Positions 698 to 34,790 of a DNA stretch of 36,449 bases are shown here, one piece after another (positions within the stretch are counted from its first letter, which is position 1; every line of letters starts with the position of its first letter). The position numbers were made by a program, and so were the translations under genes. The notes beneath the pieces are model-generated. The model saw nothing but the letters and a program-made list of their open reading frames with translations, did no database searches and was not told where the DNA came from. This stretch comes from a virus (Duplodnaviria > Heunggongvirae > Uroviricota > Caudoviricetes). The stretch is from IMG/VR virus record IMGVR_UViG_2541047954_000009; one strand, given 5' to 3'.

Positions 698-1060
698 GGG
701 GCTGATTCTGGATTCGACGGGATTTGCGAAACCCAAGGTGCATGCCGAGGGGCGGTTGGCCTCGTAAAAAGCCGCAAAAAATAGTCGCAAACGACGAAAA
801 CTACGCTTTAGCAGCTTAATAACCTGCTTAGAGCCCTCTCTCCCTAGCCTCCGCTCTTAGGACGGGGATCAAGAGAGGTCAAACCCAAAAGAGATCGCGT
901 GGAAGCCCTGCCTGGGGTTGAAGCGTTAAAACTTAATCAGGCTAGTTTGTTAGTGGCGTGTCCGTCCGCAGCTGGCAAGCGAATGTAAAGACTGACTAAG
1001 CATGTAGTACCGAGGATGTAGGAATTTCGGACGCGGGTTCAACTCCCGCCAGCTCCACCA
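698..1060 (+). ncRNA. ssrA: tmRNA (transfer-messenger RNA), 363 nt
   Basis: Begins GGGGCTGATTCTGGATTCGACGG, contains the tag-coding segment gcaaacgacgaaaactacgctttagcagcttaa (ANDENYALAA stop), and ends with the tRNA-like ...GGTTCAACTCCCGCCAGCTCCACCA; matches E. coli ssrA as remembered. Confidence 0.97.
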
Positions 1061-1061: not shown

Positions 1062-1070
1062 ATAAATCAA

Positions 1071-1103
1071 GGGGTTACGTGAAAGCGTAGCCCCTTTTTC
1101 TTT
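1071..1103 (+). terminator. Rho-independent terminator after ssrA (phage-supplied side of attL)
   Basis: Stem GGGGTTACG (1071-1079) pairs with CGTAGCCCC (1086-1094) with one G-U pair, followed by TTTTTCTTT. Confidence 0.65.
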
Positions 1104-1183
1104 GGTAGTGGCGGCAAAATGGCGACAGACTTTTGCGTCCATCTTGCCTGTCGCCATCTTGAAATCATGCAAAGAGGTTTCAC

Positions 1184-1666
1184 ATGGAAGAACTTCACTT
1201 TGTTTACATCAATGCAAATGGTCGTATCGGTGTTCACTCTATACAGAGCATCAGTTATAGCGAAAATCATATACAGGGCATTTGTAAGAACACCGATCGA
1301 ATAAAAACCTTCCGAAAAGACCGCATTCTTAAACAGTACGATTCACCAGAACAAGCCATTCAGGAATGCGCGTCATTCCTCCCCGAAAACTACTCACATC
1401 TCACTAAGCAGTCAGGTCCGAAAAAAAATACATTCGATGTGTGTTTCACCGGATTTAAGAAAGCAGATAAAGAAAGATTGGTTGATAAGGCGAATGACCA
1501 AGGATTAACGGTAAGAACCTCTATAACCCAAAGCCTTCAGATGCTCTGTTGCGGTTACAATGCAGGCCCATCAAAAGTATCGGCAGCCAGGATGAAAGGC
1601 ACAATCATCATAGATGAGCCTGGCTTTATACATTTTCTTGAAACGGGTGAGATCCCAGATGAATAA
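1184..1666 (+). CDS. Accessory protein with C-terminal BRCT-like domain and N-terminal WYL-like segment (160 aa)
   Basis: ORF with RBS AAGAGG 6 nt upstream of ATG. C-terminal half (DVCFTGFKKADKERLVDKANDQGLTVRTSITQ...TIIIDEPGFIHFLETGEI) resembles BRCT domains such as the C-terminus of NAD-dependent DNA ligase; the N-terminal motif KTFRKDRIL resembles the WYL-domain signature. Sits between attL and ogr, outside the conserved P2 backbone. Confidence 0.6.
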   Translation: MEELHFVYINANGRIGVHSIQSISYSENHIQGICKNTDRIKTFRKDRILKQYDSPEQAIQECASFLPENYSHLTKQSGPKKNTFDVCFTGFKKADKERLVDKANDQGLTVRTSITQSLQMLCCGYNAGPSKVSAARMKGTIIIDEPGFIHFLETGEIPDE

Positions 1667-1694
1667 AAACCTGCCGTAGCAGGTTCTCTTTCTT
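1662..1694. terminator. Bidirectional hairpin terminator between the BRCT gene and ogr
   Basis: Stem AACCTGC (1668-1674) and GCAGGTT (1679-1685), loop CGTA, flanked by an A-tract on one side and a T-rich tract on the other; convergent genes end on both sides. Confidence 0.55.
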
Positions 1695-1911
1695 AAAAAT
1701 TCATATGCCCCTGACCACCTGGCAATGGATGTGGAGGGGCTGTAGCAATCAATGCAGGTGTCACAATAAACCGGACCACTGTTTCATGGGTAACAAAAGT
1801 GCTCCCGCAGTTAATATTTTGGCACTGGCAGTAACGCTCTTTGGTGCTTTCTGTTACTTGAAAACTGCTCCTTGTGTGCGCCGCATGACCACACTTTGGA
1901 CAATTCATCAT
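1693..1911 (-). CDS. ogr: Late gene transcriptional activator Ogr (zinc finger, about 72 aa)
   Basis: Translation MMNCPKCGHAAHTRSSFQVTESTKERYCQCQNINCGSTF...PHPLPGGQ matches P2 Ogr/186 B family (CxxC...CxxC zinc finger); RBS GGGGG upstream of tandem ATGs at 1911/1908. The longer six-frame ORF start at 1956 is likely not used. Confidence 0.85.
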   Translation of the reverse strand: MMNCPKCGHAAHTRSSFQVTESTKERYCQCQNINCGSTFVTHETVVRFIVTPALIATAPPHPLPGGQGHMNF

Positions 1912-6636: not shown

Positions 6637-7065
6637 GGCTGGCCCCGCTTCTCTGAATCGCTTTATACCGCCATTCCAGCACTTCGGTCAGCGGCATAAC
6701 GTCAGTAACGGATGGCGGCCAGTGAAAGATGGTGGCGATATCAGCCACCAGATCGTCAACCGTCAGGCTGTCGGTAAACCGGCAAGCACCGACTTCTTCA
6801 ACAAAAAAGTGACAACCTCAACCGACATGGCAGTGAGATCTGCCGGGTCCAGCTCTGCAATTTCCTGTGCAGTCAGTGCCGGACTGGAGATGCGGGGGAT
6901 CACGGTCATCATCGCGTTCACATCCATATCCATAATGGCCTGCAGGCGTGTGCCGCGCAGCGCACCGGACTGCGGTTTACGCAGCACAATTTCGGTAATT
7001 TCTGTTTTACCGCGCATGATGGGAGTATCCAGTTGAATGGTCTTTTCAGTCTGCTTATCGCTCAT
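6629..7065 (-). CDS. Tail assembly chaperone fusion E+E' made by programmed -1 frameshift
   Basis: Slippery heptamer TTTTTTG (minus strand, 6802-6808) lies 13 codons before the E stop; reading the -1 frame from it gives an open extension (FFVEEVGACRFTDSLTVDDLVADIATIFHWPPSVTDVMPLTEVLEWRYKAIQRSGASHE) ending at a TGA overlapping the T start codon. Confidence 0.8.
6763..7065 (-). CDS. E: Tail assembly chaperone E (100 aa)
   Basis: Small ORF directly upstream of T, resembling P2 gpE; contains the frameshift site near its 3' end. Confidence 0.88.
   Translation of the reverse strand: MSDKQTEKTIQLDTPIMRGKTEITEIVLRKPQSGALRGTRLQAIMDMDVNAMMTVIPRISSPALTAQEIAELDPADLTAMSVEVVTFLLKKSVLAGLPTA
6802..6808 (-). 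other. Programmed -1 ribosomal frameshift slippery site (TTTTTTG)
   Basis: Heptamer read directly on the minus strand within the last codons of E; same motif class as P2 E/E' and lambda G/GT. Confidence 0.8.
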
Positions 7066-7119
7066 TTTGTTGTCCTGTAAATTGGGTTCTGGCGCGGCAA
7101 TCCGCGCCGTTCAGATACA

Positions 7120-7635
7120 TCAGAGGCCGAGGGCGTTGCGGTGCGCTTCCATCAGGTCCACACCGTCCACAATTTCCACCATGTTGATAAGGTCCACTTC
7201 ATAAAGCACCTCACCATTGATGGTCAGCTTCGCGTAGCTGTTGGTGCTGGTCACTTTGGTGGTGTTGCTTTCGCCCGTCTTCCACTCGCCGGAATCCACT
7301 TCTTTGTGACGTCCACGCACCACAAGCTCCACGGCCTGCACTTCCCCGGTATCGTCACGCTGGATAGAGCCGGTAAAGCGCAACTGGATGCCATCCACCG
7401 TGGCTTTGCCCATCTGCTTAAACAGCAGCAGTTCAGTACCACCAATGGAAAATTCTGTGTCCAGCGCACTGTCATCAAGCCCCAGATCCACATCCACTGC
7501 CCCCGGCATTCCGCCGCCGCGATACTTCTCATATTTGCGGGTGAATTTCGGCAGCGTCAGCGACTCAACGATCCCCTGCCAGTTGTTCCCGTCATTAAAC
7601 AGGTTCAGGTGTTTTAATTTGCGTGGTAAAGCCAT
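7120..7635 (-). CDS. FII: Tail tube protein FII
   Basis: 171-aa ORF resembling P2 gpFII, directly downstream of the sheath gene. Confidence 0.9.
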   Translation of the reverse strand: MALPRKLKHLNLFNDGNNWQGIVESLTLPKFTRKYEKYRGGGMPGAVDVDLGLDDSALDTEFSIGGTELLLFKQMGKATVDGIQLRFTGSIQRDDTGEVQAVELVVRGRHKEVDSGEWKTGESNTTKVTSTNSYAKLTINGEVLYEVDLINMVEIVDGVDLMEAHRNALGL

Positions 7636-7644
7636 GTTGTCCCC

Positions 7645-8817
7645 TTACGCGCTGACCTGGGTGGCGAAATTCACCAGGTACTGATCGGTGATGCGCTGAC
7701 GCAGCATCAGGTTTTCAAGTGGCGGCACTGGCGTGTAGTCGTAGTCGATGGTGAGTTTTCCGGCTTTCAGCGTGTCTTTGTCGTTCACCGACTCATCCAG
7801 CCAGCAATCACCACCAATGAGATAGCCCTGACTGACCAGGCTGCGCATTTTGGCGCGGATACCCTCGATAATGTCGCGGGCCAGCGACGGATTCAGCGGT
7901 TTATCCACCGCCCACATGTGCGCTTCTGCCATCGTGTCCGTCAGCACCTGCGCCGTGCGGGTGTAGTTTTCGAAGGCAAAGAGCGGGTCATCACTCAGGC
8001 AGCGGGAACCCCAGAAGCGAAAACCGTCTTTGCGGATAAGGGTGGTAACGTCGTTCTGGTTCAGCAGTCCCGCATCGGTTGCCGGGTCCTGCAGATCCCA
8101 GAACACATCAGCAGAAATTCCGGTGACACCGTTCACGCCCACGTTGGACAGGCTTTTGTGCCATCCGGTCTGCTCGTCAATTTTGGCGCGCAGACCAAGC
8201 GCACGGGCGGTGGCATAAGCCGTTGCTTCGGCATTCAGCACCGTGTCCCAGCCAGTAAAGTCGGGCCAGATCAGCATTCCTTCACGCTGGCTGAAGTTTT
8301 CACGGTAAGTGATTGCTTCCTGCACCGTCTTGCAACCATACGCTGACAGGTAAGCAAATCCACGCAGGCTTTGCGCCACGCCCAGCAACTCAGTAGCAAC
8401 GGCTTTATTATCGTGCCCCGGCACGCCGAGGATGCGCGGTTTAACACCGAGCTGTGACTGGGCAGATAACAGGGCTTTCATACCAGTTTTTTTACCTTCA
8501 GCAGTCACTGCGCCGATGATATTGGTCGTGGTTTCGTCTTCCGTTTCACCCTGCGGCACACGCACAACAACGGTCACGGGTTTTGCCTGGTCAGCGATGG
8601 CATCCAGCGAACGGGCCAGCGTGCCGGACTCACCCGCTTTACCGCTGGCAGTCAGCACATCAGTGATCAGTACGGGTTTATTAAGAGGAAACATTTTTGC
8701 ATCGGCATCATCGCCCGTGCAGACCATGCCCACGATGGCGGTGCTCACCGTGGTAATGGATCGGGTGCCTTCGTTGACTTCAACAACGCGCACTCCGTGG
8801 TGGTAATCCTGAGCCAT
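7645..8817 (-). CDS. FI: Contractile tail sheath protein FI
   Basis: 390-aa ORF resembling P2 gpFI. Confidence 0.92.
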
Positions 8818-23288: not shown

Positions 23289-25625
23289 TTACAAATATGT
23301 ATTGCTATGTAGAGATGTGTTTATTCCATCTTCTATCTCAATTTTTGACGAAGCATACTCATCATTCGCACTATCATCAATATCAAACTCATCTTGTAGA
23401 TGAAGTGACTCATTTAACGGTCTATAAAACTCACCCATCATCATTTTGTAATGGGCAGTATGCTCACTACACTCAAATATCTTCTGAAAAACAATTAAAT
23501 ATTTTTGCACAGACTCCGTATCTAAACTCATATAAAGATCATCACCTGCAAAATGAGAACCATCATTAATCCATGACACTAAAGATTTAAATATGATTTT
23601 TTCATCACCATAAAAATGACACTCAAGCTTCCTAATATCAATCCCACCTAATATCTTAAAGTAATTCTCCAAAATCCTTCGCATTGTATTTTGTATAGTA
23701 TTATTATTAATATCTGTTCTTCTCAATTCGCACCAGAGCAAATCATAAGACGTTTTTATTGGGTTTGATTCGCACTTTTCAAGATATGAGACCTTCCCTT
23801 TTTTCCTTACAATCCAAAAAGTCTCCTCTTTCATTGCTTGATTACCGGATCTTTTAGTATTAAAAGTCAACTCTTTATGAAAATAAATATTATGCGTAAG
23901 GAATATAATTTGCTTAATATTTCCTTCATCCTTACGAACATCCTCCATTAAATCTTTAATCAACGAACTTACAATAAACAGAATATCACTATCTAAACTT
24001 GAAATTGGATCATCAAATACTACAACACGATCATCTAAAACACCTGATGCATTATCACTCCCTCTAACAAGGCTATAAAAATACAAAAAAGTGATAAATG
24101 TCTTTTCTCCCTCGCTAAGGGTTGTACGAGCATTATCTCCACTATCTCTCACTATCATATAATGCTTTTTATCTTCGGAGGGTTTTAAGTAAAAATTTTT
24201 GAAGCCATAAGAATCCAGAATCTTGTTAATTTTTGTAATAGTTGGAAGAGTACTGGTTTTATTAGACTCAATTGCCTCAATAGCCGAAGCATTTAACATT
24301 AACTTCTTTTTGTCTTCCTCTAACCCAGATTTAAGTCCTTGTAACTTCCTATTAAATTTATCAGATTCGCTACGGTAAGAAGTTATTTCAGACTTTAACT
24401 CCACCTTTACGATATATGCCCATATCTGATTAGAAAGATTACTAGCCTCTACCTTTCTATTACTGTGTATTTTGTTATTATTATCTATCAATAGATTTGA
24501 ATCATTCAAAAAAGAAATAAAATCATCAACAACTTCACTTAAGTCACTAAAATGAACTGATTCACTTAAAAAATTGCGTTTATTTTTTGCCAATTCAAAA
24601 TTCTTGTTTAATTCAGATAATACTATCTTAGCCTTATCCTCAAATACTTCATAATTTATGAATGGAGATTTAATCGCCCTTATATCATCTATCGCCTGCA
24701 AGATATTATTAAGTTGATGTTCATATTGTAAAACCAATGCATCGATTTCTCTTTTTTTTAACTCATATGTTTTATCAAAATATGATGATAGATTATAAAA
24801 TATATTATCATTTACATCCTGCTGGCAAAATGGGCACTTGGGATTAGATTTACTGAAATATGTTAAACCTTCCTTAACCCAATCACTGTTATTGAGCATT
24901 GTAATTAAGTCTGAAACACTAACGTCTTTTTTCCCTAGAATACGCTCACTCCAAATCTCCCTACTCAAAATATCATCTATCCTATTGAAGGATGGAATTG
25001 TAATTGATACATGTGATGTCAATTCAGTAGAAAAAACAATTTTTGCTTTCTCAATTAGCTCTGCTATTGAGCAAACTTCTGATGTGTTATTTTCATACTC
25101 AGCCAACACTCTAGCTTTAAATTTTTCACTACTATTCCTTAATCCCTCAAAAGCCTTTGAGAACACATTATCATGTTTTACTTTTTGCTTCCAACATGAA
25201 TCTTTAAAAGATTTTTCATGGTCTTCGATTTGTTTAACAACGCCTAATATATTATCACCACCATCTATTAGCTTTTCCTTTGCTATAATAGATTCTATTA
25301 GCTTATTTTTTTCTTCTTCAAGAGATATTAGTTTCTCTTCATCCTCCTTAAGATCGCTACCAAGGGTAAATACACCTTTAATTTTATCTTGACTAAAATT
25401 TCTTTCAACAAAATCTTTATTATATACGTAGCTTATTAAAGATATATTATTTTTCCATTTAATCGGACATGTTGGATATTGTTCAGGGTCATTAATAATT
25501 TTACTTATAGTTGTTTTACCTGCACCATTAGCTCCATATAAATAGTTAAATTTAGAAAGCCCATGTAAAAGCTGAGTAGGGCCATTATATGAGCCTACTT
25601 TGTCAATAACTACCTCTTCAATCAT
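23289..25625 (-). CDS. ABC-type P-loop ATPase of the PrrC/RloC-like AAA_13 kind (778 aa); candidate anti-phage/abortive-infection protein
   Basis: Walker A YGANGAGKTT (aa 30-39, nt 25509-25535), CPFC zinc-hook-like motif (aa 264-267, nt 24825-24836) in a Lys/Glu-rich coiled-coil-like insert, ABC signature-like LSEGEK (aa 503-508), Walker B VVVFDDP (aa 534-540, nt 24006-24026), H-loop THN (aa 577-579), and a C-terminal region with RRILENYF and SH. Markedly AT-rich, between Q and the cos site. Confidence 0.75.
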   Translation of the reverse strand: MIEEVVIDKVGSYNGPTQLLHGLSKFNYLYGANGAGKTTISKIINDPEQYPTCPIKWKNNISLISYVYNKDFVERNFSQDKIKGVFTLGSDLKEDEEKLISLEEEKNKLIESIIAKEKLIDGGDNILGVVKQIEDHEKSFKDSCWKQKVKHDNVFSKAFEGLRNSSEKFKARVLAEYENNTSEVCSIAELIEKAKIVFSTELTSHVSITIPSFNRIDDILSREIWSERILGKKDVSVSDLITMLNNSDWVKEGLTYFSKSNPKCPFCQQDVNDNIFYNLSSYFDKTYELKKREIDALVLQYEHQLNNILQAIDDIRAIKSPFINYEVFEDKAKIVLSELNKNFELAKNKRNFLSESVHFSDLSEVVDDFISFLNDSNLLIDNNNKIHSNRKVEASNLSNQIWAYIVKVELKSEITSYRSESDKFNRKLQGLKSGLEEDKKKLMLNASAIEAIESNKTSTLPTITKINKILDSYGFKNFYLKPSEDKKHYMIVRDSGDNARTTLSEGEKTFITFLYFYSLVRGSDNASGVLDDRVVVFDDPISSLDSDILFIVSSLIKDLMEDVRKDEGNIKQIIFLTHNIYFHKELTFNTKRSGNQAMKEETFWIVRKKGKVSYLEKCESNPIKTSYDLLWCELRRTDINNNTIQNTMRRILENYFKILGGIDIRKLECHFYGDEKIIFKSLVSWINDGSHFAGDDLYMSLDTESVQKYLIVFQKIFECSEHTAHYKMMMGEFYRPLNESLHLQDEFDIDDSANDEYASSKIEIEDGINTSLHSNTYL

Positions 25626-25981: not shown

Positions 25982-26215
25982 TTAATGCAGCCAGCTGTCG
26001 TCTTCCCACACCTTCTGCATAATTTTCATCACTTGTTTTCTTTCTTCGTCCAGTTGCAGTCCGGTTAGTTCCACACCGTTAGAGCTACCTTTGCGAATGC
26101 GAATTACCGTTTTGGGATACAGGGGGCGCAGATTGCGGTAAAGCTCGGATTCAAGGGCGTCCAGGGTAGACTGGCTAATCTTCTGCTCTTTATCGATCAT
26201 TATTTCAATGCGCAT
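25982..26215 (-). CDS. dinI: DinI-like protein (77 aa)
   Basis: MRIEIMIDKEQKISQSTLDALESELYRNLRPLYPKTVIRIRKG...QKVWEDDSWL resembles the DinI family; start at ATG 26215 with RBS GAGGTGA, not the longer ORF start at 26287. Confidence 0.8.
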   Translation of the reverse strand: MRIEIMIDKEQKISQSTLDALESELYRNLRPLYPKTVIRIRKGSSNGVELTGLQLDEERKQVMKIMQKVWEDDSWLH

Positions 26216-26225
26216 AAAAGTCACC

Positions 26226-26414
26226 TCAGCTGATGACATCCATTGAGCGGTTGTATTCGTGGGTTCTGATTTTTGCCATGAGTTCATCAGTCAATTCAGA
26301 AACCCACTGCAGAGCCAGCCCCTTCTCTTCATCACTACACTCACTAGCCGCTACAAGCTTAAGAAAAAAATCAATGCGCTGGAGCTTCAAAGACTCCAAA
26401 AAATAGTCCTGCAT
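26226..26414 (-). CDS. Small SOS-controlled protein, putative Tum-like antirepressor (62 aa)
   Basis: ORF starting MQDYFLESLKLQRIDFFLK with a strong RBS (AGGAGG) and a LexA box about 40 bp upstream; position relative to dinI, A and cos matches the 186 tum locus as remembered. The six-frame ORF start at 26516 lies upstream of the promoter and is rejected. Confidence 0.5.
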   Translation of the reverse strand: MQDYFLESLKLQRIDFFLKLVAASECSDEEKGLALQWVSELTDELMAKIRTHEYNRSMDVIS

Positions 26415-26567: not shown

Positions 26568-28982
26568 TTAATACAGGTTCCGCCACTGATCATCTTCCTG
26601 CAAACGCTGGTTCCGATAGAAGATACGCAGGCCTGCTCCTGACGGAATACTGCCTCCGCGAAGGAGTAAATCGACCTCTTTCTCGCTGCCATCAAATCCT
26701 CTGGACTTCAGCTCATACACGAGCTGCAGTCGCTGATGGTCTGTAATTCGCTGTTTGTAGTCTTTACGCCGTTTCGGTTTCACCAGGCGTAACCTTGCTG
26801 CCAGTTCCCGGCGCTCTTTTTTGCTCATACTGTGCAGGTAATCGTGCAACTCCTTGTCATCCATGCTGGTAATGTCCGTTCTGGGGTCCCCATCAGCTGA
26901 TTTATCTTTCTCCTGTTGGTTCAAATTTTCAGCAAGGGGACAGTTATTGCCACGAGTCCAAGGGGCGCAAGCGCCCTGGTCGGCTGCCGCCTCCTGAACG
27001 TCAACGGCCTTACGAACCATTTTCCACTTCACGGCATGAGTGCAGATTTTGCCCTCTGCAATGGGTGACCAGATGCCATAAATACGAATGCCGTGATCGC
27101 CATAGGCGGTCGGCTCTTCGTTGATTTCATAAGCGGTTCTGATGAGGTGATATTTGCGGGGGACCAGTACGCCGCCCTGCTTCATGATGTAGGTGGCAAA
27201 ACAACCAGCATCAGCTGCAGCCAGAATGGCATCAAGGCGCGGGTTATCCAGTACCGGCGCACCTGCTTTTTTGTCACCCTGTTGCCTTGCCGCCTGACCA
27301 GCCAGCAATCGCAGTTCACGGTAAGCCTGACGCCCCGGAATGCCAAAGAAGCGGAATTGCTGAACACGATGCAGAGACGCCCAGGCATTAACGTATTCAG
27401 CGTTATCACGCAGAGATTTACCCGTTTCCTTGCTGATCTCGCCAGCCAGACCACGCCCGTCAATGTTCTTACTGATGTATTTCGCGATGTAGCTAGTCGG
27501 CGTTCCTTTGCGCGGGTTTATCAGCTCAGACTTAAAGCGTGGCCCCGTGTTATTACCCAGCTCCTCGCGGTCTTCACGAATGGCAAACTTACGCAACAAA
27601 GCAGTAATGGTGCGGCGATCTTTTTTGCGCATAAAACACAACAGGTGCCAGTGAACTGTACCGTCATGATGCGGCTCAGCCACCCGCACGCCATACCAGC
27701 GCAATCCGGCTTTGTGCATCGCCTTACGAAATGCAGCAAACATGCCGACCAGATAATCACTGCTTTGTCTTACCGTCGTATTTGTCCAGGTCGGGTTGGG
27801 CCTGCCGTTATTTAGCGTGGAATGGAAACGTGACGGACAGGTGATGGTGTAGAAAACGGCGCAGTCACCGCGCATTTCCGCGATAAGCTCCAGACCTTTA
27901 ACACAGGCCATCATCTCATTGCGGCGATGCGCAGGGTTGCTGCTGCTGGCGTTTACCACATCCTCCATGTCCAGCGTGTCGCCGTCTTCGTTCACCAGTT
28001 CATGAGAACGGAAAAACTCCAGCGACTTACGGCGCTGCTCACGTTTATGCATCACGGCTTCATAGCTGACATAGGGAGATGCTTTTTTGCTGACCAGGCA
28101 AACAGCACGCAACTGCTCTTCCCGCCATTCGCAACGCATCTTCCATAATTTCCGGTACCACCAATCGGCGCACAACATACGCGCCAGCGAACCCGGAATG
28201 AGTTCATAGGGCACGGGTTTACGGCGGTTTCTTTTCCGGCGGAGTTGCTCAAACGCAGGCGGTATGACATCCAGTCGCAGGGTTTCTGCTGCCACCTTTT
28301 CCCATGTCTTGCGGATTTCTTCTGGCTTAACGTCATCGGTGGCATACAAATCGCCACAAGCTGCATCAAGGCACATGCTCATATGCGCAGCAACAAGGGT
28401 GGACAGGCGTTTCACCTGATCCTGACTCATTTCAGGCAGAATCAGCAGGCCGTCCAGCCCTTCATGGCTTGCCATAAAGCGAAAAGAAGTGGATAGCTGA
28501 CTGTCGCGTACATGCTCCAGCCGTTCCAGACATGGCTTAATCGTCTCACGCAAATAGCGGGAATAAGCCTTTGGCCTGCCAAGGCTGCTGAAGTATTCAA
28601 TACGTTGCATCAGCGGCCTGCTGATATGGGAAGGCTGGGCGTTAACGTCTGCCAGAATGACCATGTCCGGGTTAAAACGCTGCTGCTCATGCGCCAACTT
28701 TGCCCGGCTAATGAGCTTATCCTGCTCCATTTCGCGCTGGACAGGATCACGGGATTCATTAAAGAAATAACGCTCCCAAACCTGATCACTCAGTGCCTCG
28801 CGGCGCAGTTGTTCCTGCTCGTTATCGGCAGCGTACAGAGTGATCAGGTTTGAAAGCGCAGAAACCGGCGCAACTTCCGCCGGGTCCAGATAAGGGTTAA
28901 TAGCCTTTTTCGGGCTGTTCCATGAGAATGCTGCGGCGGCCTCGTTAAAGCCGCTGCAGTTGTTCATATCAGCATGGCTCAT
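26568..28982 (-). CDS. A: Replication initiation protein A (rolling-circle endonuclease, 804 aa)
   Basis: Long ORF resembling the P2/186 gpA replication protein family as remembered; located in the early region upstream of the cos-proximal genes. Confidence 0.88.
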
Positions 28983-29836
28983 GCACGCACTCCGTACACG
29001 GCAGAACTATCCACGCCACGCGAAGGATCAAATCCCACCCAGCAGCGCGCCCCAGAAACAGCGATGATTTCTGTTGCAGATTTACTCTCGCCAGCCGACA
29101 CGCCGATGCTGCGTTTTGCCTTGATGTAGTGGTGAGTGAAATTTCGATACAGCGAACGGATCAGGGATGTGTCACTGTTAGAAACAATGACTGGATGACC
29201 TTCTGATGATCGATATTCAAGAACAGATGCCAGGTGATACTGGTCATCTTCAGTGAAGCCGTCAGTGTGATAGCCGGAAAACGTACCGTCATAAGGCGGA
29301 TCGCAATACACCACATCCCCCACCTGCAGCATCGCCAGCGTTTCATCAAAGCTGGCGCAGATAAACGTTGCTCGCTGGGCTTTCTCTGCAAATGCGCGAA
29401 TTTCTTTTTCAGGGAAATACGGATTTTTATAATTACCGTATGGAATGTTGAAATGCCCGCTCTTGTTATAACGACATAACCCACGGTAACCATGACGATT
29501 GAGATACAGGAAATATACCGCTTTCATGAAATCAGTAATTTCAGTGGAGTAATTAAACTCCTGCCTTATGTTGTAATAAGCCAACTCCCTGTTTGCTTCC
29601 TCAAATAAAGCTCTGGCACGAGATATAAACGCCTCGCAATCAGCAGCAACCTTTTTATAGAGGTTGATTAAATCAGGATTAATATCCGCAACAAGATAGC
29701 TGGGGTAATCCGTCTCCATCATCACAGCACAGGAACCCGCGAAAGGTTCAACCAGTCGCGGGCCAGCAGGAAGATGTTTTTTCAGTTCGGACATAATGGC
29801 AGTTTTATTACCCGCCCATTTCAGGATGGTACTCAT
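28979..29836 (-). CDS. dam: DNA adenine methyltransferase (Dam-like N6-adenine MTase)
   Basis: Resembles Dam from [15 protein letters not shown]...; contains the DPPY catalytic motif and AdoMet-binding FAGSCAV; start at ATG 29836 (RBS AGGAGG), not the upstream ORF start at 29908. Confidence 0.85.
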
Positions 29837-30135
29837 ACAGCACCTCCTGCAATAACATATCCTAAAGCTTCTAATGGGGTTAATGGGCGAATTGATAGCA
29901 TCACCCATTGTTCTGAAACTGCCATGACGTCATTAACCGGAAGCACATGAGAGATAACAGCGGCCCATTCCCTACCCGTAAATACGCCATGCTTCCATTC
30001 GCAAAGAGAAAGAACATCACCAACTTTATAGCCACGATCGTCTTTACGAAGTTCAGCCGTCTTTTGACCTGCAACCACAGCGTTGAAATACTTAGGTGCA
30101 ATTTTTAATTGATGGATACGCACTGCCCTTGTCAT
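29833..30135 (-). CDS. Small phage protein of the DUF3850/ASCH-like kind
   Basis: 100-aa ORF from [40 protein letters not shown]...; this pattern recurs next to dam in P2-like prophages as remembered. Confidence 0.55.
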
Positions 30136-32328: not shown

Positions 32329-32961
32329 ATGTTAAACATCAGAATGGGTTCCGATACGGGAGGTAAGGCAGCTATTGAGAGGCTGCTTGAGGCTTATGGA
32401 TTCACAACTAAGCAGGCATTAAGCGAGCACCTGAATGTCTCAAAAAGTACTATGGCAAACAGAGTGTTACGTGACAGTTTTCCTGCTGACTGGATAATTC
32501 AGTGTGCACTAGAAACCGGTGTTTCGTTACTTTGGTTAGCCACTGGACAGGGAAGCATGAAAGAAGGATACGAGCCTGAGAAAAGATCTCATAACGAGAA
32601 CAAACAAGCAATTAAACCGTTATCCAAACTCATAACTCCATCTATTCCTAAAGGAACCTTGGAAAATGGACAACTCAGTATTGATGAAGAGATTTTCCTA
32701 GACCACAGCATATTACCTGCAGATTATGAAGAATCGATGTTCTTAGAAACCCCTACTGATTGTTATCTCATCGATAAATCAGTTAAACAAGTCAGCAATG
32801 GATTCTGGCTTATCAATATTGATGGAATGATTATTATTGCAAAAATCATGCGGATTCCCGGCAATAAGATTGTAGTAAATCAAGATGAAGCGTCTTTCGA
32901 GTGCTCTGCTGATGATGTGGAAGTTATTGGGCGTGCAGTCAAAGTAATAAAGAGTATCTAA
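32329..32961 (+). CDS. cI: CI-like immunity repressor (210 aa)
   Basis: ORF with an N-terminal HTH-like region (TTKQALSEHLNVSKSTMANRV), divergent from the apl-like gene and directly followed by int as in 186; RBS GGAG 7 nt upstream. Confidence 0.75.
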   Translation: MLNIRMGSDTGGKAAIERLLEAYGFTTKQALSEHLNVSKSTMANRVLRDSFPADWIIQCALETGVSLLWLATGQGSMKEGYEPEKRSHNENKQAIKPLSKLITPSIPKGTLENGQLSIDEEIFLDHSILPADYEESMFLETPTDCYLIDKSVKQVSNGFWLINIDGMIIIAKIMRIPGNKIVVNQDEASFECSADDVEVIGRAVKVIKSI

Positions 32962-32963
32962 AC

Positions 32964-33980
32964 ATGACTGTCAGAAAACAGCCAAACGGTAAATGGTTGT
33001 GCGAGTGCTATCCCAATGGACGCAATGGCAAGCGCGTGCGTAAGCAATTTGCTACGAAAGGCGAAGCCATTGCTTTTGAAAGCTTCACAATGGAAGAAGT
33101 GAACAAAAAACCATGGCTGGGGGAAAAGGAAGATCGGCGACACCTATCAGAATTAATTGAGCAGTGGTATTCCCTGTATGGTCAAACACTCGCAGACCCC
33201 AAGCGCCTCATAGCGAAACTTAGAATTATCTGTAATGGTCTAGGCGATCCCATCGCTTCAGAACTGACAGCCGGTGACTTTACGAAATACCGCGAAGCAC
33301 GGTTAAAAGGTGAAGTACGAAATGAAGATGGCACGTTTATGTCGCCCGTTAAGCCCCGCACGGTAAACCTTGAACAGCGCAATCTATCATCTGTTTTTGG
33401 TACACTGAAAAAGCTGGGCCACTGGTCAGCCCCCAACCCGCTTGCTGGGCTGCCAACATTTAAAATTGCTGAGAGTGAATTGGCGTTCCTGACCCCGGAA
33501 GAAATTAAACGTCTGCTGGATGCCTGCGCCGATTCTCAAAGCTCCAGCCTGCTTTTGATTGCAAAAATATGCCTGGCCACCGGCGCACGCTGGAGCGAAG
33601 CCGAAAACCTGCAGAGTCATCAGGTATCAAAATACCGTATCACTTATACCAAGACCAAAGGCAAGAAAAACCGAACTGTGCCTATTTCTAAGGATTTATA
33701 TGAAGAACTGCCTAAGAATAGGGGGAAGTTATTCACCCCATGCAGAAAAGCCTTTGAGCGTGCAGTAAAGCGGGCTGGTATCGATCTGCCAGAGGGTCAA
33801 TGTACTCACGTTCTGCGTCATACATTCGCTAGCCATTTTATGATGAATGGTGGAAACATATTGGTTTTGCGGGATATCCTAGGACATTCAGATATAAAAA
33901 TGACCATGGTCTATGCACACTTCGCCCCAGACCATTTAGAAGATGCCGTAACTAAAAATCCTTTATTTAATTTGAGGTAA
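32964..33980 (+). CDS. int: Tyrosine site-specific integrase (P2/186 Int family)
   Basis: 338-aa ORF with the C-terminal catalytic region of tyrosine recombinases (ATGARWSEAENL...HVLRHTFASHFMMNGGNILVLRDILGHSDIKMTMVYAH); adjacent to the att site. Confidence 0.93.
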   Translation: MTVRKQPNGKWLCECYPNGRNGKRVRKQFATKGEAIAFESFTMEEVNKKPWLGEKEDRRHLSELIEQWYSLYGQTLADPKRLIAKLRIICNGLGDPIASELTAGDFTKYREARLKGEVRNEDGTFMSPVKPRTVNLEQRNLSSVFGTLKKLGHWSAPNPLAGLPTFKIAESELAFLTPEEIKRLLDACADSQSSSLLLIAKICLATGARWSEAENLQSHQVSKYRITYTKTKGKKNRTVPISKDLYEELPKNRGKLFTPCRKAFERAVKRAGIDLPEGQCTHVLRHTFASHFMMNGGNILVLRDILGHSDIKMTMVYAHFAPDHLEDAVTKNPLFNLR

Positions 33981-33990
33981 GTAGTAATTT

Positions 33991-34659
33991 ATGAATAGCG
34001 AACTAGAGTTACTTATAAAAATATTATTCCCTTCCCTATCTGCCATTATATCCTTATTAGGGCTTAAAACAGGGTGGACTTATAAAAAAGACAAACTATT
34101 CACATCACGTAAAAACATTAGCGAATTTTCATATCAAATGTATAAAAGCAGTGAAGATCCGACCTTCAAAAAACTGGCGGAAGATTACGGCATTGCTGCA
34201 TTAACCAAAGATAACACATTGACAAAAAAACAAAGATTAATATTACTCAACACAACAAACCCCGTTAGCGATATAGATGATTATTCCAAATGTCAAAGTC
34301 TAATTTCCATTACCACCCATAAAGAAATATTCGCATGGAATAAAAAAAGATATAAATACAGCATATATAGAAAATTAATAAAAATTATAACAACTCTAAT
34401 TTACTTCATGGGCAGTCTCGTCGTAGCACTTCCTTTCAGTTATTCTGTTGTAGTAAGTGCTAAGATGATGGAGAAGATAAACCATCTAACTACTTGGCAA
34501 TACTTTGGTTTAAGCAGCTATTTTGTGGTATCGGGAGTAGCAATATGCTTTATCTGCCTAGATAAGCTCTCCAAGATTAAGATCGCCGAGAGATTAATCG
34601 TTTCAAATAGGCGTTTAGGCGACAAATGCAGTGGCGGCACTTTGGCGGCAGAAAGTTAA
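33991..34659 (+). CDS. AT-rich accessory membrane protein (222 aa) between int and attR
   Basis: ORF with an N-terminal hydrophobic segment (LLIKILFPSLSAIISLLGL) and two C-terminal hydrophobic helices (ITTLIYFMGSLVVALPFSYSVVV; FGLSSYFVVSGVAICFICL); AT-rich with a weak RBS; no recognisable family. Confidence 0.55.
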   Translation: MNSELELLIKILFPSLSAIISLLGLKTGWTYKKDKLFTSRKNISEFSYQMYKSSEDPTFKKLAEDYGIAALTKDNTLTKKQRLILLNTTNPVSDIDDYSKCQSLISITTHKEIFAWNKKRYKYSIYRKLIKIITTLIYFMGSLVVALPFSYSVVVSAKMMEKINHLTTWQYFGLSSYFVVSGVAICFICLDKLSKIKIAERLIVSNRRLGDKCSGGTLAAES

Positions 34660-34744: not shown

Positions 34745-34790
34745 ATGTAGGAATTTCGGACGCGGGTTCAACTCCCGCCAGCTCCACCAA
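34745..34790. repeat. attR: 46-bp direct repeat of the ssrA 3' end, right prophage junction
   Basis: Exact copy of 1016-1061; the sequences on either side diverge. Confidence 0.88.

Follow-up and report, generated by a model that had tools for sequence, protein, structure and literature searches.

WYL domains are understood as single-stranded DNA (ssDNA)-sensing inputs of transcription factors that activate defense or DNA damage regulons, and bacterial BRCT domains are, to our knowledge, known almost only as the tails of LigA and of a DnaQ-like exonuclease. The repressor-linked exclusion genes of prophages include rexAB of lambda, glo of Vibrio phage K139, and old, tin, and fun of P2, and prophage genes that are co-transcribed with the repressor (lambda rexAB, K139 glo) classically encode exclusion functions. 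The WYL domains of DriD, PafBC, and CapW bind ssDNA via the flanks of strand 3 and an arginine of the β4-β5 loop (PMC11662680, PMC6789036); this loop is essential in PafBC and supplies the ssDNA-contacting arginine in CapW (PMC6789036, PMC11662680). The isolated BRCT domain of RFC1 has a preference for DNA ends that carry a 5'-phosphate together with a 3' ssDNA overhang, which it binds with a Kd of ~10 nM (PMC9293009). Fusions of WYL and BRCT domains were listed by Makarova et al. in 2014 (PMC4012209).

Here, we analyzed such a fusion gene in a stretch of 36,449 nt, hereafter the window. Its product lacks any catalytic domain and consists of a WYL-type Sm-like barrel, a flexible linker, and a single BRCT domain of the LigA/RFC1 type. 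It is thus a variant of the known WYL sensors in which BRCT replaces the usual DNA-binding and WCX domains. Unlike the wHTH-WYL-WCX regulators (CapW, BrxR, DriD, and PafBC), it carries neither a winged helix nor WCX and has BRCT as its output module; the barrel begins at residue 3, and no HTH or WCX family was matched in the protein. It can therefore not be a transcription factor of the CapW/BrxR/DriD/PafBC kind. With the BRCT domains of LigA and RFC1 it shares the fold and the T-G...K/R...K pocket positions, which in RFC1 form the groove for 5'-phosphate and DNA binding, but its BRCT is mildly acidic and joined to a WYL barrel instead of a ligase or clamp-loader core. The gene resembles rexAB, glo, and old/tin/fun in being accessory, in lying in or near the lysogenic operon, in varying between related phages, and in its low GC content, although no sequence or fold relationship connects its product to theirs.

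The ssrA-integrated prophage and its accessory gene

The window starts with smpB (1-483), followed by the tmRNA gene ssrA, at whose 3' end a prophage of ~33.7 kb is integrated between two att repeats. The main features are as follows.

698-1060, plus strand: host gene ssrA (tmRNA; ARAGORN, tag ANDENYALAA), its 3' end being the prophage attachment site
1016-1061, no strand: attL core, a 46-bp exact direct repeat of attR (local alignment of both prophage ends)
1069-1096, plus strand: hairpin, phage-supplied intrinsic ssrA terminator (12-bp stem with 6 GC pairs, then a T-run)
1109-1127, plus strand: two tandem TGGCGRCA repeats, 11 bp apart (starts 1109 and 1120), candidate P'-arm Int arm-type sites
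1115-1161, no strand: inverted repeat (14-nt arms, 13/14 complementary, 19-nt spacer; from the sequence)
1173-1177, plus strand: ribosome-binding site AGAGG, 6 nt 5' of the ATG (read from the sequence)
1184-1666, plus strand: WYL-BRCT gene, 160 aa plus stop codon, ATG start (ORF call, PHROG and homologue matches, AlphaFold model)
1668-1685, no strand: hairpin between the convergent WYL-BRCT and ogr genes (7-bp stem, 4 GC pairs)
1693-1911, minus strand: ogr/delta late-gene activator, the first conserved P2-family gene (Pfam Ogr_Delta, 9e-21)
32329-34659, plus strand: lysogeny operon at the opposite prophage end (cI, int, and a 222-aa membrane ORF)
32329-32961, plus strand: cI, 186-type repressor (Phage_CI_repr and Phage_CI_C)
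32964-33980, plus strand: int, lysogeny operon
33991-34659, plus strand: 222-aa membrane ORF (orf222), lysogeny operon
34745-34790, no strand: attR core (local alignment of both prophage ends)

The att core is common to Fels-2, SopEPhi, and RE2010, and the junction region is 97.5 to 98.2% identical to the Escherichia phages Cartapus and 500465-1. The left end of the prophage carries ogr and tail genes of the P2 family. At the other end, cI, int, and orf222 share the strand of the WYL-BRCT gene and become its neighbors across attP once the phage is circular, in the order cI - int - orf222 - attP - WYL-BRCT gene. The prophage also carries a DinI-like (Tum-type) gene, from which we infer that its induction is controlled by DNA damage.

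An earlier sequence-only reading had placed a 160-aa gene with its own ribosome-binding site between the att repeat and ogr, and the comparison of loci bears this out. A purine-rich block occupies the place of AGAGG in the aligned homologous loci, and in an alignment with six other genera conservation starts exactly at the ATG, the preceding 60 nt being divergent. Both hairpins that the same reading had described as terminators flanking the gene also exist, but the upstream one, which is conserved in other genera, is the ssrA terminator brought in by the phage; it separates ssrA from the WYL-BRCT gene and is not a feature of the latter. The downstream hairpin, with a T-run on the complementary strand as read from the sequence, probably ends transcription from both sides. 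A simple scan of the plus strand between 1000 and 1184 found no sigma-70-like promoter, and nothing promoter-like was conserved upstream of the ATG in the alignment of seven genera.

The inverted repeat noted immediately upstream of the gene proved real, although its spacer is one nucleotide shorter than the 20 nt first given. Its cores are GGCGACAG (1121-1128) and CTGTCGCC (1148-1155), with 19 nt between them. The left arm coincides with the second unit of the tandem TGGCGRCA pair, and the right arm is a third, inverted copy, TGGCGACA (1149-1156). An identical tandem pair is found on the P arm at 34632-34650 (starts 34632 and 34643). In the window, TGGCGRCA has 14 matches compared to 4.05 expected, a number reached in 0 of 100 shuffles, and 5 of the 14 copies are within the att arms. 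The left block was conserved in all seven of the seven genera compared, while the right arm of the inverted repeat was without conservation in four of the six other genera aligned. Repeats on both attP arms are the usual signature of integrase arm-type sites; because TGGCGRCA occurs on both, the inverted repeat is best read as part of attP, that is, as arm-type repeats and putative Int sites. We rejected it as an operator of the WYL-BRCT gene, given that the left block is a tandem direct repeat with a second occurrence on the opposite att arm, while the right arm is unconserved.

The cargo status proposed for the gene, outside the conserved P2 set, agrees with what is found at the same place in other E. 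coli prophages, where the interval between ssrA and ogr holds a 237-aa ORF, or a retron-type reverse transcriptase (RT) with a small ORF. It also agrees with the base composition: the GC content of the gene is 0.41 compared to 0.51 for the prophage, and other cargo of the prophage is similarly low. The att-ogr interval is a variable cargo site, and ORF 1184-1666 is a true accessory (moron) gene carried by a P2-family prophage of the Fels-2/186-like type.

A WYL-type barrel joined to a BRCT domain

The product is divided as follows.

1184-1345, plus strand: WYL-type Sm-like five-stranded barrel, residues 1-54 (fold, and Pfam matches in relatives)
1346-1435, plus strand: two short helices (residues 55-73), then a flexible linker (residues 74-84) (AlphaFold model)
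1436-1663, plus strand: BRCT domain of the LigA/RFC1 type, residues 85-160 (profile and fold)

The predicted N-terminal domain is a five-stranded Sm-like barrel whose fold is closest to solved WYL domains. Pfam WYL (PF13280) gave no match to the window protein even at E ≤ 10, and matched 11 of 30 homologous N-domains, the best at 2.6e-4; the relative P0155 scored 28.5 bits against a cut-off of 21.8 and matched the PADLOC WYL model at 3.7e-9. Searches of the PDB returned noise only for the N-domain profile (streptokinase, E = 0.34) and no match for the WYL segment of P0155. Since this detection from sequence failed, the WYL assignment is based on the Pfam matches in relatives together with the fold, and these uphold the WYL resemblance first noticed in the KTFRKDRIL motif. 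The motif (K41-T-F-R-K-D-R-I-L49, residues 41-49, nt 1304-1330) lies on the β4-β5 loop, where the stretch T42-F43-R44-K45-D46-R47 is the most conserved of the N-domain. Among 38 sequences, T42 was present in 38, F43 in 37, R44 in 33, and R47 in 32; the most divergent members of the alignment have other residues at R44 and R47. Strand 3 carries the triplet H-I-Q ([HY]-[ILF]-Q across the family) instead of W-Y-L, and the arginines on either side of it are unconserved.

The linker is modeled by AlphaFold with low confidence, with a pLDDT of 67 for residues 71-80, and the full model has a pTM of 0.51 despite a pLDDT of 91. The C-terminal domain that follows shows the BRCT order β-α-β-α-β-β-α within the BRCT range of about 75 to 95 residues. 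In PF00533, the window protein reached 18.1 bits compared to a gathering cut-off of 21.3 (E = 0.0033); the same Pfam family is precomputed for family members including P0025, P0032, and P0037, and P0122 and P0124 score 46 to 54 bits. The best profile matches of the family in the PDB were RFC1 (4e-5) and LigA (1e-4), and a fold search of BFVD returned mainly ligase BRCT tails, along with a few small BRCT or WYL proteins. These profile matches and the fold support the BRCT domain that had been suspected in the C-terminal half, so that the BRCT and the WYL assignments are both supported.

The BRCT domain also displays the phosphate-pocket pattern, i.e., T/S-G at the β1-α1 turn, a basic residue in α1, and a lysine in α2. 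T89, G90, and K131 were invariant in 38 of 38 sequences, as was K93, and K96 was lysine in 36 and arginine in 2. In the alignment, T89, G90, K96, and K131 correspond to T166, G167, R174, and K209 of yeast Rfc1. By these putative pocket residues the domain would belong to the phosphate-binding RFC1/LigA-type subclass. A conserved ETGEIP[DE] tail follows it.

Family distribution and genomic context

The two-domain combination had been thought unusual, and this did not hold. The protein matches PHROG 2561 over its full length (1.6e-76, residues 1-159 on profile positions 2-167 of 167), and an exhaustive profile search found 184 clusters (at 50% identity) with E < 1e-30 in which the two-domain module is present. 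The same search gave 2589 such clusters at E ≤ 0.001, many of which probably match via BRCT only. With the fusion noted before, as cited above, the family is already catalogued, as PHROG 2561 and as the NCBI "BRCT domain-containing protein" of Enterobacterales prophages, and the window protein is a member; the label "DNA ligase" that goes with it is unsupported. In the literature, we found no functional study or experiment on any family member, and the "BRCT" of an integron-defense preprint turned out to be a false match to "Brc".

Proteins of Citrobacter, Klebsiella, Erwinia, Tatumella, and Plesiomonas are 69 to 71% identical to the window protein, and full-length homologues of 155 to 175 aa extend down to 31% identity. 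Some relatives have predicted membrane anchors, duplicated modules, or extra domains of no recognized type. When such fused relatives were scanned with Pfam and PADLOC, no recognizable effector was found, only more copies of WYL or BRCT, predicted membrane segments, and regions without an assignment. Some relatives have a "DGYAAGW" partner domain of ~200 aa, either as a fusion or next to the gene. In a gammaproteobacterial metagenome-assembled genome (MAG), one of the extra domains is a separate gene directly 3' of the WYL-BRCT gene (30% identity, 4e-18), which suggests an optional partner.

The arrangement ssrA-att-WYL-BRCT gene-ogr was present in 170 of 5426 complete E. coli genomes (~3%). 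In the phage collection, a protein search found the gene in 28 records. Most are 31 to 39 kb long, and the hosts are Escherichia, Yersinia, Vibrio, Burkholderia, Mannheimia, and Pseudomonas; the family assigned to Mannheimia phage PHL101 and Vibrio phage PV94 is Peduoviridae. Across genera, the gene recurs at two positions, always on the strand of cI and int: directly 3' of the repressor, or just across attP. The former was seen in prophages of Yersinia ruckeri, Pectobacterium, Xenorhabdus, and Serratia, as well as in PV94 and in PHL101, whose copy begins 3 nt behind the CI gene. Considering the circular order across attP, the repressor-adjacent and att-adjacent positions fall within one lysogeny-side region.

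We scanned the context using one genome per species, which gave 49 loci, 42 of them with a called target ORF. A co-directional CI/LexA-type repressor (186-type CI, or HTH with S24 peptidase) was located upstream in 17 of the 42, and in 14 of these 17 it was the nearest ORF, with a gap of ≤ 115 nt. Six further loci had the att-gene-ogr layout. In five of them (Erwinia, Klebsiella, Plesiomonas, Tatumella, and Citrobacter), the WYL-BRCT gene follows the tmRNA gene in the same orientation at a distance of ~125 nt; in the sixth, from another Citrobacter, the contig runs out immediately before the gene. Pantoea At-9b, which has an extra YcaO gene, carries it 178 nt behind tRNA-Met. Downstream neighbors vary and include integrase, ogr/gpD, AbiTii, KAP NTPase, and GmrSD-like genes. 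The family is thus found mainly in temperate phages, on the repressor/integrase strand, in a region that is active in lysogens.

An obligate two-gene system with the 222-aa membrane ORF was discarded, as this ORF was found in 29 E. coli genomes compared to at least 170 for the WYL-BRCT locus; it is at most an occasional neighbor of WYL-BRCT genes. Homologues of the ORF, at 35 to 38% identity, were also observed directly 3' of WYL-BRCT genes in Rahnella and Acerihabitans.

Possible roles of the protein in lysogens

We tentatively favor, at somewhat less than even confidence, a role of the protein in superinfection exclusion, in which it would be expressed by the lysogen and would sense ssDNA and 5'-phosphate DNA structures without being an enzyme. 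It would be made in lysogens: gene copies directly after cI would be co-transcribed with it, while in the window expression could arise from read-through of the ssrA terminator or from a weak promoter missed by the simple scan, and in the excised form read-through from the cI-int transcript may be a further source. The protein would act as a DNA-structure sensor or adaptor that binds short single-stranded nucleic acid via the conserved β4-β5 loop (TFRKDR) of its WYL barrel and a terminal 5'-phosphate in the BRCT pocket (T89, G90, K96, and K131). Together, the two domains might recognize the 5'-phosphate junctions of single- and double-stranded DNA of an incoming phage, such as cohesive ends, nicks, gaps, and replication intermediates. 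By occupying structures needed by LigA or by repair or recombination proteins, the protein could block circularization or replication of the superinfecting phage, and this would provide an exclusion or defense function to the benefit of the lysogen.

Exclusion is in line with the classical role of repressor-linked accessory genes and with neighborhoods that are rich in defense genes. In its favor are the conserved positions of pocket and loop, the ligands known for RFC1 BRCT and for WYL domains, the linkage to repressor or att, the variable, defense-rich surroundings, the low GC content, and the relatives with predicted membrane anchors, whereas the lack of an effector or enzymatic domain in the protein, and of a sigma-70 promoter in the scan between the ssrA terminator and the ATG, speaks against it. 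No established defense family was matched, the sole PADLOC match being to the BRCT tail of the candidate system PDC-S48, with which the protein has the C-terminal BRCT in common (7e-7, residues 83-153 on positions 335-406 of 411); membership in PDC-S48 was rejected, as 72 of the 411 profile positions are matched and the other ~330 are without counterpart. Against ssDNA binding count the missing W-Y-L triplet, the substitution of R44 and R47 in distant family members, and the missing WCX domain, with which the regulators build part of their ssDNA crevice. The near-neutral charge of the protein and the mild acidity of its BRCT (pI 5.3; family median 5.6) are unusual for a non-specific DNA binder, so that a protein or phospho-ligand partner would fit equally well.

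Such a partner is central to another explanation, in which the WYL barrel would sense ssDNA arising from damage and the BRCT domain would dock on a host or phage protein, adjusting induction, spontaneous or SOS-driven, or the stability of the prophage. Candidate partners would be LigA, the clamp, RecA/RecFOR substrates, Int, and the repressor. In the papers considered here, the characterized WYL sensors with a known ligand (DriD, PafBC, and CapW) do respond to ssDNA from DNA damage, the linkage to the repressor is tight, with a gap often of only 4 to 60 nt, a protein partner would match a BRCT that is acidic but retains its phosphate pocket, and the DinI-like (Tum-type) gene places induction under damage control. 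We nevertheless consider such tuning of lysogeny rather unlikely. Two unrelated types of repressor (186-type CI, and HTH with S24 peptidase) are found next to the gene, and in the window int, another ORF, and attP separate it from cI, both of which speak against a dedicated pairing with the repressor. Relatives are also located outside recognizable prophage immunity regions, beside restriction and Abi genes. Less probable still is that the protein serves the DNA transactions of its own phage, by protecting or aligning 5'-phosphorylated cohesive ends, by aiding circularization by LigA, or as an accessory factor at attP in integration or excision. Although NAD-dependent ligases and RFC1 have the BRCT domains nearest to this one, the split ligases of T5-like phages bear BRCT on the B subunit (9hu3_B), and in Peduoviridae the gene always adjoins int or attP, it lies outside the conserved P2 set, occurs in ~170 of 5426 E. 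coli genomes, and gives way to other cargo at the same site in P2-like prophages. It is also placed in the lysogenic operon and not in the early or late lytic operons, and in non-P2 contexts a repressor but not an integrase precedes it.

That the protein is a DNA ligase or exonuclease, as it is named in phage records and PHROGs, can be practically dismissed. The names "DNA ligase" (PHROG 2561, NC_049342, and ORF34 of PHL101) and "putative exonuclease protein" (phage Cartapus) go along with weak NCBIfam matches to LigA and a DEDDh exonuclease, but these matches are limited to the C-terminal BRCT tails of enzyme models of 331 to 669 positions and fall far below the cut-offs. For LigA, only positions 549-650 of 652 in TIGR00575 were matched, with 16.9 bits against a cut-off of 444, and for the DEDDh exonuclease NF004719, only profile positions 229-307 of 331, with 24.3 bits against 389. 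Adenylation, OB, zinc-finger, HhH, and DEDD domains are all absent from the 160-aa protein. Both names are wrong for this family and derive only from BRCT tails.

Within superinfection exclusion, our preferred role, a more specific version can be drawn, which we regard as improbable as it stands. In it, the gene would encode an effector-less, single-gene prophage immunity factor that caps the 5'-phosphorylated single-/double-stranded ends (cohesive ends, nicks, and gaps) of incoming phages, and in the lineages integrating into ssrA or tRNA genes, the promoter-less gene would be turned on by the integration event, which puts it directly behind a host RNA gene with very strong transcription, through terminator read-through.

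Whichever role applies, the "DNA ligase" and "exonuclease" labels that are spreading in phage annotations need correction. The free-standing WYL-BRCT protein, whose gene numerous unrelated temperate phages keep beside the repressor, would be a compact and easily testable case of a prophage reading DNA structure with neither an enzyme nor a DNA-binding regulator domain. If the protein excludes phages, it would add a new minimal mechanism to the defenses of prophages; if it tunes induction, it would provide a new link between ssDNA sensing and the lysogeny decision.

Cargo and repeats at the attachment site

The interval between att and ogr, which in this prophage holds the WYL-BRCT gene, carried alternative or additional genes in two comparison genomes:

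L011 (E. coli MS20649, NZ_CP082087.1), 1719-2432: 237-aa hypothetical protein
L007 (Pantoea sp. At-9b), 6843-8345: YcaO-domain gene (417 aa) and 68-aa ORF

The 237-aa protein represents a third alternative cargo of the ssrA/att-ogr interval, and no match to it was found in Pfam or PADLOC. In Pantoea sp. At-9b, the YcaO-domain gene and the 68-aa ORF lie between the WYL-BRCT homologue and ogr, as additions to that homologue, and could together be a small RiPP-like cassette that the prophage carries as cargo.

Repeats of the motif TGGCGRCA were also observed around the att core:

1109-1156 and 34632-34650: TGGCGRCA repeats, in tandem pairs flanking the att core

The paired copies have a spacing of 11 bp, and one inverted copy is present in addition. 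The repeats probably represent integrase arm-type sites, and the left block was kept even in the Pantoea prophage, which is integrated at tRNA-Met.

Genes and domains linked to WYL-BRCT

Two features were associated with WYL-BRCT genes in other genomes:

L025, 5502-6095 (also in proteins P0148 and P0176): domain of approximately 200 aa with the motif DGYAAGW...DIKLTP
33991-34659, + strand: 222-aa ORF, after int and just before attR

The DGYAAGW-type domain forms a C-terminal fusion on WYL-BRCT in some proteins. A gammaproteobacterial MAG has it as a gene of its own, directly after a WYL-BRCT gene (30% identity, 4e-18). The pattern suggests that WYL-BRCT is linked by gene fusion to a putative partner.

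The 222-aa ORF has a GC content of 0.35 and encodes about three hydrophobic segments; searches against Pfam and PADLOC families gave no match. In both Rahnella rivi (L019) and Acerihabitans (L021), a homologue with 35-38% identity was located directly 3' of a WYL-BRCT gene. Since only 29 E. coli genomes carry the ORF, it was ruled out as an obligate partner of WYL-BRCT.

Genes in the prophage interior

Three genes on the minus strand were considered:

23289-25625, - strand: AAA_13 ATPase gene, 778 aa (Pfam, 4.6e-164)
25982-26287, - strand: DinI-like-domain protein, 101 aa (1.3e-22)
28979-29908, - strand: 309-aa ORF with a DPPY motif, adjoining the replication gene

Judged by its sequence, the 309-aa ORF looks like a putative Dam-type DNA adenine methyltransferase. 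The 101-aa protein is presumably similar to the Tum-type antirepressor known from 186-like phages, from which SOS-dependent induction of the prophage would follow. The AAA_13 ATPase was matched over its full length by the PADLOC candidate defence gene PDC-S06 (3e-266), with weaker similarity to LmuB, PrrC, and AriA, and its gene has a very low GC content (0.31). The position of the ATPase gene, with the portal gene on one side and the replication region on the other, makes it a second cargo gene of the prophage, separate from WYL-BRCT.
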